Assembly: GCA_963675665.1 (NCBI GenBank)
Contig: OY776510.1
Coordinates: 4,960,001-5,024,000 of the forward strand
Length of the DNA: 64,000 nt
Direction of reading: 5' to 3'
From: Spirochaetia bacterium
GTDB taxonomy: Bacteria; Spirochaetota; Spirochaetia; UBA9216
The notes under the pieces are model-generated. The model saw only the letters and a program-made list of their open reading frames with translations, did not search any database and was not told the origin of the DNA. Position 1 is the stretch's first letter. Each line of letters begins with the position of its first letter. Both the position numbers and the translations under genes were made by a program. Positions 20,664 to 33,903 of the stretch are shown here, in pieces.

Positions 20664-21431
20664 ATGAATAGCAAGAAAACAAATATGAAAGACCGTGTAG
20701 TTCTGATTACCGGTGCGGGGCGCGGAATAGGAAGGGCCTGTGCACTCACTTTTGCCGAAGCCGGCTGCGATATAGCACTTGGCTTGAGAGATCAAGAAAA
20801 TGCTCCCGACCTTGTTGAAGAAATAAAATCCAAAGGTGTCAGGGCCTTCCCCGTCCAGATGAATATCAGCCAAATGGATGAAATCTCTGCAGCGGTTGCT
20901 GAAGTAGTCAGCTATTTCGGACGAATTAATATCCTGGTGAACAACGCCGGAATAGGCGCTCCGAACCCTGCTGTTAAGGTAACTGAAAAAGATTTCGATG
21001 AAACAATTAATGTTAATCTGAAGGGAACATTTTTTACTTCCCAGGCTGTAGGGAAACAGATGATAAAACAAGGTACCGGCGGAAGTATAATTAATATGAG
21101 TTCTCAGGCCGGGTTTGTGGCTCTCGATACAGAATCCGTTTATTGCATGACCAAAGCTGGGATTTCACACCTTACCAAGTGTCTTGCGCTGGAATGGGCC
21201 CCTTATAATATCAGGGTCAATGCTGTAGCTCCGACCTTTATAAAAACACCGGGAACAGTAAAATGGCTGAAAAATGAAGAATTCCGCAAATCCGTACTTC
21301 AGCGAATTCCGCTTAACAGGACCGGGATCCCCGAAGATGTTGCCGATCCCGTGTTATTCCTTGCTTCAGACGAAGCTTCAATGATAACCGGTACGACACT
21401 TATGATAGACGGGGGATGGACGATTCAGTAG
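20664..21431 (+). CDS. Short-chain dehydrogenase/reductase
   Basis: TGAGRGIG, NNAG, YCMTK, IDGGW. Confidence 0.93.
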   Translation: MNSKKTNMKDRVVLITGAGRGIGRACALTFAEAGCDIALGLRDQENAPDLVEEIKSKGVRAFPVQMNISQMDEISAAVAEVVSYFGRINILVNNAGIGAPNPAVKVTEKDFDETINVNLKGTFFTSQAVGKQMIKQGTGGSIINMSSQAGFVALDTESVYCMTKAGISHLTKCLALEWAPYNIRVNAVAPTFIKTPGTVKWLKNEEFRKSVLQRIPLNRTGIPEDVADPVLFLASDEASMITGTTLMIDGGWTIQ

Positions 21432-21571
21432 GTAATATCGTTATAGCGACATTTATAACATTACCTGCGCTGGCTCCTTTTAGAAATTTAAATATTAAGG
21501 GAACCTCTGATATGATGTGACCCATGTCAAGTTAAAATATCCAGGTTTTATCTATAAGATCCCCCCCCTGT

Positions 21572-21770
21572 CCAGGACAGGAAGAAAGATAGAACAACGT
21601 TTATGCGGCGATAGACCACTCTGATATTCGCGGATTGGTTACCGCAGGTCAATGGGATCGTCGGGAGCTGCCTCTGTCTAAAACCGAGGATCAATATTAT
21701 TATTGCCTCATAGAGGTGCCGAGGGTTCTCCTTTATCACTGTTGTTGTTCTATCCATCCTTCTGTCCTGG
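21572..21770 (-). ncRNA. Putative bridge/seek RNA of the IS110-family element
   Basis: 27-nt closing stem (21744-21770 with 21572-21598) enclosing two hairpins whose flanks match the target (TCTAAAA, TAGAGGT) and the donor junction (TCTGATAT, CAAT). Confidence 0.75.
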
Positions 21771-21794
21771 TAGCTTATTAACCAACTATCGAAG

Positions 21795-22898
21795 TCATGC
21801 GACTTCTGTTCTACCTACCATCATTCCCCAAATAAATCCTGATAATTCTCTGGCAACTGCCGTAACAGTTTTCTGAGGGCATACCCCTCTACGAATCATC
21901 CTGAAATATTTCTTACTCAACCTTCTGCCGGCTTTATCAGCATAAGCTATTGTTTCAGCAGATTGTCCTTTCCTTCTCGCTGTCAGTCGTTTCGATGGCG
22001 AATACCTTTGGTAATGCCAGCTTGATTCCACTAACAGCCGTCGTAGCCTGGAGTTGCCGGCCTTCGTAATCCCGCCAAGCTTCCGGCCCTCTCCGCTTGA
22101 GTATTCTGACGGCACAAGTCCAAGATACGCCATGAAGGATTCCGCTTTTTTAAATCTTCTGAAATCTCCTATCTCGCATACAAATGTTAATGCTGTTAAT
22201 GTCTCTATACCTTTGAAACATCGAAGCCGGGATACCCTTTCTTTATATCTGTCTTCAGCAGCAATCTCTTCTATTTTTTCCTGCAACCGTTCAATCTTTT
22301 CCTCTAATTCCACAATCGCAAGATAATATTCTTTTAAAACTTCTTTATGCATTACCTGTTCAAACTGCAAGTTTTTCAACCAGGTTCGATGCGCCCCTGT
22401 CCAGTACTTTTTCCCAATATCATATTTCTTCCCGTTCCTTAGCAGAAACTGTAAGAGCCTCTGTTTCTGTTTCCTCAAATCAATTTTCATATCGTTACAC
22501 ATCCTCATGTAATCACGAACTGATTCATCTGTGCGTGTCGGTATATTCACCGGTGTTATTTCCTGATTCCTTAATGCTCTGGCTAATTTGACTGCATCCC
22601 TCTTGTCTGTCTTTATTCGGTCTCCGGGTTTCCTCGGCAATAATGATGGTGCTGCTACGTAACAGATAATTCCCATATCTTCAAGTAATCTATAAAGTGT
22701 AAATCCTGTAGGGCCTGCTTCGTAACAACACAGAATATTTTCTCCATTCTCTTTAAGTCGCTTGAAGAATCTTTTAATATTTCCGGGTTCGTTCCTGAGC
22801 TCTCTTTCAAACTCAGGATTCTGATAATTATCTCTGAATACCGCTACTGCGATTGATTCCTTGTGGACATCCATCCCTACATAAATTACACTATTCAT
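21795..22898 (-). CDS. IS110-family DEDD transposase/recombinase
   Basis: VGMDVHK, YEAGPTG, KTDKRDA (RuvC-like DEDD), YLGLVPSEYSSG with catalytic Ser; GGAGG RBS before ATG22898. Confidence 0.95.
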   Translation of the reverse strand: MNSVIYVGMDVHKESIAVAVFRDNYQNPEFERELRNEPGNIKRFFKRLKENGENILCCYEAGPTGFTLYRLLEDMGIICYVAAPSLLPRKPGDRIKTDKRDAVKLARALRNQEITPVNIPTRTDESVRDYMRMCNDMKIDLRKQKQRLLQFLLRNGKKYDIGKKYWTGAHRTWLKNLQFEQVMHKEVLKEYYLAIVELEEKIERLQEKIEEIAAEDRYKERVSRLRCFKGIETLTALTFVCEIGDFRRFKKAESFMAYLGLVPSEYSSGEGRKLGGITKAGNSRLRRLLVESSWHYQRYSPSKRLTARRKGQSAETIAYADKAGRRLSKKYFRMIRRGVCPQKTVTAVARELSGFIWGMMVGRTEVA

Positions 22899-23187
22899 AG
22901 TGGCCTCCGTTCCTTTGTATGTGGCGTGTCTGCGCTTTGCCATTAGCCATTGTGTAGGCTAATCCACGATTTTGCAAACACGGCGGTCACTTCATATTGT
23001 CTAATAATCCTAAATTGGGCTTATCAGAGTTTTGAAACACTCTGTGTTTCCGGGAGTTTATTTATTTCCTTATCAGTCAATAAATAAACATCCAATACAT
23101 CTAAGGAAGACTTCGAAAACTAAAGTTTTATAAAACTGCAGTTTTTAGAAGTCCCCTTAACTCAAACTATTAATATGCATCAGATTT

Positions 23188-24003
23188 TCATTCAAAAACA
23201 TAATGAATCCTTGATTTTATCTGATTGTACATTGACCCCGGCATGCCAATTGTCATATCCTCGGGATTAAATCCTCCCCACCCAACAGCACCAGGGTCAG
23301 ATAACATCACATTTGCTTTCCCATTCCTGTAAGGATATGCTGTTGTGGATAGACACATGCCCATTGCAGCTGTATGATTCAGACATATATAATTCATCAG
23401 TCTCTGCATCCACTTTCGTTTCATCGTTGATGTAACAAGTGCCAGCACAGGAACTGATTGTACAAATCCGGATGCAAAAACTTTATTGAATGCAAGTATA
23501 TTTTTTTGACGCTTATCATTTTTATCTGAATCCTTGTCTGCTGAGGTTCCCGGAATAAATCTGTCATTTATTGAAAAAGCAATTTGCCCAAGGAATTCAT
23601 CGTCAAGATTCTCAGGTCCGAGCGTGACAACAATATCTTCCATTACAGATTTTGGTACTGTTATGGAAACAACATCAGGGTTACAAATGTCTGTAATTAA
23701 TGGATGCCGGGTCATATTCATATCAGCATTAAAAATGAAAATAGCACGGTTCTTCTTCTCATATCTTATGGAAACCACACTATCAATATCGTTTTGAGGA
23801 TCACGCAATCCGAGCGCAACAAATCCCCATGCACACACTTTCAGAGATTCCTCGGTAATTAGAAGGCCTTCATTATATCTTCCTGCAAGCAATAGCCCGA
23901 GAGCTTCGCAATAGGAGCGAACTTCAGGTGTCGGCAAATCAGTTTTCGGTATTTCCTGATAAAATTTAATTCCTATCGGAATACGATTATGTTTTGTTTC
24001 CAC
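23188..24003 (-). CDS. DUF169-like protein
   Basis: PIGIKF, YCEA, CAWGFVALG, PDVV, MC, D...G..PEDM.IGMP pattern of DUF169. Confidence 0.6.
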   Translation of the reverse strand: METKHNRIPIGIKFYQEIPKTDLPTPEVRSYCEALGLLLAGRYNEGLLITEESLKVCAWGFVALGLRDPQNDIDSVVSIRYEKKNRAIFIFNADMNMTRHPLITDICNPDVVSITVPKSVMEDIVVTLGPENLDDEFLGQIAFSINDRFIPGTSADKDSDKNDKRQKNILAFNKVFASGFVQSVPVLALVTSTMKRKWMQRLMNYICLNHTAAMGMCLSTTAYPYRNGKANVMLSDPGAVGWGGFNPEDMTIGMPGSMYNQIKSRIHYVFE

Positions 24004-33754: not shown

Positions 33755-33903
33755 GGGAACCTCTAATAACCCTAAATTGGGCTTATTTGAGGTTTGAAAC
33801 ACTTTGTGTTTCCGGGAGTTTACTTATTTCCTTATCAGGAAATAAGTAAACATCCACTAAATCTAAGGTCGGCTTCTAAAAACTGCAGTTTTTAGAAGTC
33901 CCC
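33755..33903. mobile_element. MITE-like element copy B (intact, empty IS target)
   Basis: Imperfect 16-bp TIRs GGGAACCTCTAATAAC / GTTTTTAGAAGTCCCC (13/16); body aligns with 23003-23156; no ORF of its own. Confidence 0.85.

Follow-up and report, generated by a model that had tools for sequence, protein, structure and literature searches.

The window analysed here is a 64,000-nucleotide stretch of the single-contig genome of a Spirochaetia bacterium (assembly GCA_963675665.1, contig OY776510.1, positions 4,960,001 to 5,024,000), and it carries an insertion sequence (IS) at positions 21509 to 23000 that interrupts a miniature transposable element bounded by inverted repeats (MITE). It is very likely that this is an IS110-family element of IS1111 layout, and that a predicted bridge RNA guides it to the motif ACCT-CT-AA inside the left terminal inverted repeat (TIR) of the MITE. 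A previous reading of the window, made from its letters and open reading frames (the sequence-only reading), had named an IS110-family element with IS1111 affinities, nested in the terminal repeat of a MITE and with the empty target in the same window, and these assignments were borne out.

Both boundaries of the IS could be read from its junctions. On the plus strand, the left junction is TTAA-GGGAACCT-CT followed by GATATGATGTGACC... from 21509, and the right junction is ...GGTCACTTCATATTGT up to 23000 followed by CT-AATAATCCTAAATTGGGCTTAT. Excision in silico of 21509-23002 (1494 bp) restored GGGAACCTCTAATAATCC.., which agrees with the uninterrupted repeat at 33755 (GGGAACCTCTAATAACC..) apart from one difference, as the sequence-only reading had indicated. 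A search of the 5.15-Mb genome with a 1491-bp query gave seven copies listed at 100% identity, one of which scored 5 bits below the others. The junctions were [AC]ACCTCT, IS, TCTAA[AT]A in all seven copies; these shared junctions are real and far beyond chance. Other copies at unrelated sequences had been named beforehand as the observation that would speak against the proposal, and all seven copies lay at the same motif. Insertion was site-specific, without target duplication beyond the CT core (seven of seven copies, one motif).

The extent of the core was the point at which the sequence-only reading, which had assigned a 3-bp TCT, had to be corrected. The core common to both junctions was CT (AG on the transposase strand), and in a relative of 68% identity in the same genome, as in other family members, AG alone was common to both junctions. 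Since this relative shares only CT/AG, the core is CT/AG and not TCT. The third base of the apparent TCT is a coincidence: this target's right half (AGGTTC) happens to begin with the same base as the IS end (ACAATATG..). The features of the IS proper are as follows.

21509..23000, minus strand: insertion sequence of IS1111 type, 1492 bp long if the second core copy is left out, with ends set by the family-wide conserved AG-ACAATATG.. and ..CATATC-AG
23001..23002, plus strand: second copy of the CT core, the first being 21507-21508; CT/AG is kept in both target-loop arms across the family
21510..21522, minus strand: subterminal inverted repeat of the right end, GGTCACATCATAT in transposase orientation, 1 nt from the tip; 12 of its 13 bases pair with 22985-22997
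22985..22997, minus strand: subterminal inverted repeat of the left end, ATATGAAGTGACC in transposase orientation, 3 nt from the tip
21795..22898, minus strand: transposase gene for 367 amino acids and a stop codon; its likely start is MNSVIYVGMDVHK, preceded by GGAGG at a distance of 7 nt, and relatives align from the same methionine

The region downstream of the transposase gene was predicted to fold, on the transposase strand, into a long closing stem around two stem-loops, the first of which has an internal loop. Relatives were pooled from two scans, which contributed 6 loci from genome contigs and the best 80 of 469 confirmed matches in metagenome contigs. Of 88 related sequences, 76 matched a profile of the non-coding region, and in every case the match lay downstream of the transposase gene. 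The alignment showed constant stems, a constant CTA in one arm of the first loop and a constant TAG in the other, with hypervariable positions between them. In the helices, 93.7% of cells were paired, compared with 35-48% when the partners were slid, and none of 500 shuffles reached this level; for this test the stems of the donor loop were set by hand, as RNAalifold did not recover that loop. Compensatory changes were seen at 15 RNA pairs, and the G-U pairs fit the transposase strand.

The two arms of the first loop correspond to the two sides of the target. The 5' arm GGCACCUCUA is identical to the plus strand of the target, GG[A/C]ACCTCTA, and the first eight bases of the 3' arm GUUUUAGACA match TT(T/A)TT-AG of the other strand; the top-strand match stands 5' of the bottom-strand match, and the two overlap at the core. 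Arms and flanks were compared in non-redundant loci that have the standard core and are free of alignment gaps, which numbered 23 on the right side and 34 on the left. Loci whose end escaped the fuzzy patterns were set aside; at the right end these were 33 of 76, and at the left end their number was higher. The reverse complement of the 5' arm agreed with the right flank at positions 1 to 5 in 23, 23, 23, 22 and 15 of 23 loci, against a shuffle expectation of 6-8, and fell to the background level at positions 6-8. The 3' arm agreed with the left flank at positions -1 to -4 in 34, 30, 20 and 13 of 34 loci (shuffle expectation 25, 9.6, 9.6 and 8.7). None of 5000 shuffles reached the total for either arm, and the 23 right-side guides comprised 20 distinct 5-mers. 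These values suggest an effective target of only ~8-10 bp with an asymmetric split. A one-base skip in the left-side pairing, hinted at by a few loci, was dropped, as the plain ungapped register explains the data. The RNA features are listed below.

21572..21770, minus strand: structured non-coding RNA domain (predicted bridge RNA or seekRNA) with a closing stem of ~30 bp, from fold and profile
21664..21731, minus strand: predicted target-binding stem-loop with internal loop; helices backed by compensatory changes
21711..21720, minus strand: 5' arm of the target loop, GGCACCUCUA, which would pair with the strand reading TAGAGGTGCC (target right half plus core); covariation in 23 loci
21675..21684, minus strand: 3' arm of the target loop, GUUUUAGACA, equal to TT(T/A)TT-AG (target left half plus core) and then the first bases of the IS left end; covariation in 34 loci
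21606..21663, minus strand: putative donor-binding stem-loop, highly conserved, with closing and inner stems 91-100% paired
21621..21627, minus strand: 3' arm of the donor loop, AUAUCAG, which reads the same as the final 5 nt of the IS right end followed by the core
21525..21530, minus strand: TTGACA (-35 box) directed outward, close inside the right end; among the 43 related loci with the right end found, 37 have it at 14-32 nt from that end

The relative of 68% identity provides an example of such covariation within the genome itself. It lies at genome 4456574-4458047 (L008:1501-2974) in a different target, GTAAAAAAG-CT, IS, CT-ACGGGAC. Where the two arms align, it has GTAAAAAGCTG and GTCCGTAG (shorter form GTAAAAAGCUG and GUCCGUAG), and the surrounding stems are conserved. 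A 10-nt gap frameshifts its transposase gene, and its donor-loop arm differs by one base from the end of the same element. The relative probably represents an older copy that has decayed.

The second, or donor, loop was nearly invariant across the relatives. Among 41 non-redundant loci, the 7-mer of its 3' arm was identical to the right end plus core in 37; eight of these fell into three classes (ATAACAG, ATACCAG and ATATAAG) in which both sides had changed. The right end also contains a possible promoter element. In the computed circle junction, a distance of 17 nt separates the TTGACA box from GACAAT, a sequence that extends across the core into the left end, and 10 of the 12 positions agree with the consensus. 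A promoter scan of the integrated copy found no sigma-70-like site on the minus strand upstream of the transposase gene; the two sites it returned were both on the plus strand, compared with 4.5 expected in shuffles. Junction promoters are known for the IS110 family, and we infer that a circular intermediate would form here and create the junction promoter.

The sole long frame of the IS runs from 22943 to 21795 on the minus strand. The ATG at 22898 is the likely start, and the longer frame of 382 amino acids from 22943 is probably not used. The predicted protein contains the Pfam domains PF01548 (N-terminal, DEDD/RuvC-like; E 2.7e-13) and PF02371 (C-terminal; E 3.5e-22), and it scored 240 bits against NCBIfam NF033542 ('IS110 family RNA-guided transposase'), for which the cut-off is 140. 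Matches to solved structures were limited to the recombinases of IS621 and ISCro4 (E 2e-10 and 3e-8), mainly at residues 195-290. D10, E60, D98, D101, S268 and G269 were invariant among five relatives and aligned with the matching residues of IS621 in a phmmer alignment; S268-G269 lies within GLVPSEYSSG. We take D10, E60, D98 and D101 together with S268-G269 to be the catalytic residues. By these domains and residues, the predicted protein is a DEDD IS110-family transposase, the family that the sequence-only reading had named.

Placement in the IS1111 type is supported by the layout, namely the long 3' non-coding region and the 13-bp subterminal repeats. Within the IS, 102 nt lie upstream and 286 nt downstream of the transposase gene, and the repeats ATATGAAGTGACC and ATATGATGTGACC stand 3 and 1 nt from the tips and are complementary at 12 of 13 positions. 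As described in PMC11208160, the IS1111 and IS110 groups are told apart by such features, with subterminal repeats of 7-17 bp and short terminal extensions; IS1111-family elements, as described in PMC11187229, have a non-coding region 3' of the gene and transposases of 330-350 amino acids. The closest annotated relative found was an 'IS110 family transposase' from a Leptospira interrogans plasmid, with 47% identity. At this locus (L117; NZ_CP136246.1 51329-54808), the RNA profile matched downstream of the transposase with an E-value of 3e-24, and therefore the clade extends to cultured spirochaetes; the ends of this locus gave no match to the fuzzy end patterns.

On the reading that we prefer, the 3' non-coding region (286 nt) would encode a bridge RNA (seekRNA) with two internal loops, which would be transcribed and bound by the transposase. 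The first loop would read the target, its 5' arm GGCACCUCUA pairing with one strand of ..ACCT-CT and its 3' arm GUUUUAG with the other strand of CT-AA(A/T)A, and the second loop would read the joined ends of the element. Recombination would then take place at the CT core, making no target duplication. The guide-specified motif ACCT-CT-AA, of ~8-10 bp, would happen to sit 8 bp inside the left TIR of the MITE, and for this reason most copies would have landed there and split the repeat.

Several points weigh against this reading. The left-side guide is short and clearly above expectation only at -1 to -3. The donor arm was mismatched in 4 of 41 loci (L013, L016, L017 and the relative of 68% identity in this genome), and comparison by eye of the 5' arm of the donor loop with the left end gave partial matches only, with no clear register. 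A scan of 21400-23200 against Rfam 15, on both strands and at E up to 1, returned no match, and the RNA transcript and its ends are predictions. As for the subgroup, the transposase, at 367 amino acids, exceeds the 330-350 amino acids given for IS1111-family proteins (PMC11187229), and its likeness to IS4321/IS5075 is confined to the C-terminal domain (37.5% over residues 198-293), which makes the placement in the IS1111 subgroup a tentative one.

The IS copies and the decayed relative lie at genome positions 553746, 2046245, 2621209, 2818569, 3725159, 4456574, 4981509 (window 21509) and 5030463. All eight (seven IS copies and the relative of 68% identity) point the same way in absolute terms, each with its transposase on the minus strand (two-sided chance 0.008). 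By GC skew, the origin lies at ~0.85 Mb and the terminus at ~3.55 Mb, so that three of the eight copies are in one replichore and five in the other; the strand bias showed no relation to replication direction. The exact IS was found only in the source genome, and among five genus mates only one contained a relative, of 66% identity. The IS is very likely active or recently active. The 14 sequencing runs listed for this region exist as contigs, and none is registered as RNA. In run X1, the depth of the IS was ~114, compared with ~11.5 in the flanks, as expected for a collapsed repeat. Contigs of runs X1, X3, X4 and X7 contained neither a 21508-23003 join nor a circle junction, which bears neither way on excision or expression. 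The X4 contigs, from a second marine metagenome study, held the IS at no less than 99% identity (>=99%) together with the flank of genome copy 2818569, and therefore come from the same or a very close strain with the same insertion there.

The repeat that houses the IS is a genuine MITE, with imperfect TIRs (GGG[AC]ACCTCTAA and GGGGACTTCTAA), a size of 43-165 bp and no open reading frame; it occurs as about seven composite copies besides shortened and hairpin-only forms. Copy-specific 4-bp duplications stood exactly outside the inverted repeats in 7 of 10 elements, the chance of a 4-bp match being ~0.004 per element at the base composition of the genome. The other three elements, including that at window 33755-33903, lacked a perfect duplication, and two of them agreed at three of four bases. 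The outer limits given by the sequence-only reading, 21495 and 23160, coincide with the TTAA direct repeat that flanks the MITE and the IS together, and the IS splits the left TIR 8 bp from its tip. The MITE features and the elements with duplications are as follows.

21495..21498, plus strand: left 4-bp target-site duplication TTAA, identical to 23157-23160; pairing of the duplications by script
21499..21508, plus strand: outer 10 bp of the MITE left TIR (GGGAACCT plus the CT core), the target right half on the transposase strand; matches 33755-33764
23003..23156, plus strand: rest of the MITE, comprising the remainder of the first hairpin, the second hairpin, and the third with the right terminal repeat ..TTAGAAGTCCCC
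23157..23160, plus strand: right 4-bp target-site duplication TTAA
33755..33903, plus strand: uninterrupted MITE copy with intact target GGGAACCT-CT-AATAA; the flanks ATTT and TTAT are not a perfect duplication
Genome 386392-386524: MITE element, duplication TTAT
Genome 553736-555272: MITE, 43-bp hairpin-only form holding the IS, duplication ATAT
Genome 2046235-2047863: MITE element, duplication TATA
Genome 2935002-2935165: MITE element, duplication CAAT
Genome 3725149-3726790: MITE element, duplication ATCC
Genome 4218164-4218327: MITE element, duplication TTTA
Window 21499-23156: MITE element, duplication TTAA

The modular build of this repeat could also be read as a mosaic of palindromic units resembling repeated extragenic palindromes (REPs) or bacterial interspersed mosaic elements, which would make the insertion the classic case of an IS110-family element in a REP. 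The 161-bp MITE query consists of three hairpin modules that were also found separately and in other combinations, and the genome showed no autonomous element bounded by such repeats: a search of this genome alone found no IS-like-spaced repeat pair with a duplication except the IS-holding MITEs. The copy-specific 4-bp repeats at the exact outer ends of 7 of 10 elements, however, are a transposition footprint that would not be expected for REPs, and we regard a REP-like origin as quite unlikely. Of 10 further genomes from this family, 6 contained the MITE, and the exact IS was found only in the source genome, which makes the MITE the older component and the IS a recent arrival; the identity of the seven copies fits with this. 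Four 36-bp mini-hairpins (GGGAATCTCTAA..TTAGAGATTCCC), kin to the MITE ends, lie at genome 241322-241357, 1885873-1885908, 4557416-4557451 and 202543-202578; they have no perfect 4-bp duplications and hold no IS insertion.

The sequence-only reading had taken the MITE itself to be the target. This stood for six of the seven filled sites, which are in composite, shortened or hairpin-only forms of the MITE family, and failed for the seventh (genome 2621209), which lies in a different small repeat family carrying ACCTCTAAAG. Sister copies of that repeat read ACTTCTAAAG and hold no IS, ACCTCTAAAG being found only in the filled copy, and the right end of the MITE (ACTTCTAA) was never targeted, though it sits in equally good hairpins. 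Because these sisters and right ends are spared, it is the motif that is read and not the MITE as such. In the genome without the seven IS copies there are 45 ACCTCTAA sites, of which 7 are filled, and suitable empty sites remain, for example at genome 2935162, which matches the right-side guide at 10 of 10 positions; genome 386521 and window 33755 are empty too. The small repeat family of the seventh site is ~130 bp long (genome 2620989-2622922, with sisters near 1148523, 2884864, 4787872, 4212142 and 2973058). It opens with TAGGAGGAATGATAAAATAA, readable as a ribosome-binding site and a 3-codon mini-ORF, contains hairpins, and ends ..TTATAGGAGGA directly before gene starts. From genome ~2622800, ~100 bp downstream of the seventh IS, a high-copy repeat begins ..AGGAGGAATGATAAAAAGTCTTCATGAGC; it has at least 15 copies at 99-100% identity (e.g. 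1349689, 1822027, 2765108 and 3775126) and is probably another, more abundant insertion sequence.

The sparing of the ACTTCTAA sister repeats also bears on whether the palindrome, rather than the motif, is recognised, as a hairpin or cruciform or through protein-DNA contacts, with the complementarity of the non-coding region being secondary. A palindromic partner (TTAGAGGT, at most one mismatch, within 62 nt) was present at 5 of 7 filled and 8 of 38 unfilled ACCTCTAA sites (Fisher p 0.015), and a guide that specifies just ~8-10 bp would leave room for such recognition. Against this, the arms covary with the flanks across ~20 different targets, and the filled sites were outside long open frames in 7 of 7 cases, compared with 19 of 38 unfilled sites (p 0.016), so that selection against genic insertions explains the bias equally well. 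Because the hairpin excess shrinks to 5 of 7 versus 7 of 19 among sites outside long frames, a structural preference is inseparable from the loss of genic insertions. Recognition of the palindrome in place of the motif is thus very unlikely. A weaker variant, which keeps the guide, is that the unusually short and asymmetric guides of this clade (~2-3 nt left, CT core, 4-5 nt right) are too little to account for the presence of every copy in a palindromic repeat and that a second cue is needed, such as extrusion of a hairpin or cruciform; we consider this unlikely. If true, the element would be a structure-assisted RNA-guided recombinase specialised in parasitising the ends of other transposons.

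That the seven copies are not independent, the MITE and the IS having been copied as a unit by a MITE transposase or by segmental duplication, is extremely improbable: three copies (genome 2046245, 3725159 and the window) do lie in full composite MITEs with their own 4-bp duplications, yet this account is contradicted because the flanks are divergent, the IS being 100% identical while the surrounding MITEs share only 72-83% identity with the empty copy in the window, and the host architectures differ (a 43-bp hairpin, a ~75-bp shortened form, 135-165-bp composites and an unrelated repeat).

Guidance of the IS to a motif inside the MITE repeat has counterparts in known systems. IS4321 and IS5075 reportedly target the terminal repeats of Tn21-family transposons. 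They are IS1111-family elements that, like the IS described here, occupy one position inside the TIR of another transposon; their host, however, is a large autonomous transposon, and the identity of 37.5% concerns the C-terminal domain only. IS621 has a CT core dinucleotide, as here, and a promoter across its circle junction, as we infer for the present element, and, like several other IS110-family members, is said to target REPs. Its recombinase gave a significant alignment with the present transposase only at residues 195-290. As reported by Durrant et al. 2024 (PMC11208160; structures 8wt6 and related), IS621 likewise combines a DEDD recombinase with a two-loop guide RNA, but it belongs to the IS110 group, with the RNA in the 5' end and subterminal repeats of 2-3 bp.

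The elements ISEc11, ISPa11, ISKpn4 and ISPst6, described with seekRNAs by Siddiquee et al. 2024 (PMC11187229), share with the present IS the non-coding region downstream of the gene, the subterminal repeats with short terminal extensions and the motif GL-P----SG (GLVPSEYSSG here). They also share the order found above, which is that of IS1111-type seekRNAs, with the top-strand match 5' of the bottom-strand match and an overlap at the crossover (PMC11187229). In contrast to the present case, which is known from sequence alone, their transposases have 330-350 rather than 367 amino acids. ISPpu9 of Pseudomonas putida, an IS110-family element, also has seven copies in repeated extragenic palindromes, but its host is a REP and not a MITE, and the likeness is by description (PMC12288879).

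The nearest precedent for the nesting itself is in Coxiella burnetii RSA 493, for which Wachter et al. 2018 (PMC5896051) describe 20 of 21 IS1111 copies in the palindrome of QMITE2, with empty and filled QMITE2 alleles between strains serving as timing markers. There, as here, copies of IS1111 type occupy a constant position within a palindrome close to one end of a MITE ~150-190 bp long. The host phylum, the MITE and the target are different, and the duplications are of 7-11 nt, compared with 4 bp here (PMC5896051). In the literature searched on IS110/IS1111 elements and MITE or TIR targets, we found no conflicting account; PMC3184786 and PMC3189936 name IS110 only within a reference and a table. 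The suggestion of the sequence-only reading that the IS uses the MITE as a safe harbour and disables its TIR may be correct, in which case the interrupted MITEs would be immobilised.

A guiding role for a 3' seekRNA or bridge RNA has been in print since 2024 (PMC11187229; PMC11208160), and IS1111 insertion into a MITE has already been published for Coxiella (PMC5896051); the present element is a clean but ordinary example, and knowledge of the family is unchanged by it. It offers one well-resolved natural case in which filled and empty sites occur in a single genome, together with a clade of relatives (from contigs of genomes and metagenomes and from a Leptospira plasmid) whose guide arms and targets can be read directly. 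The ~20 distinct natural guide-target pairs that this clade yields for an IS1111-type bridge RNA are the main added value, and the short target may help the mining or engineering of such recombinases.

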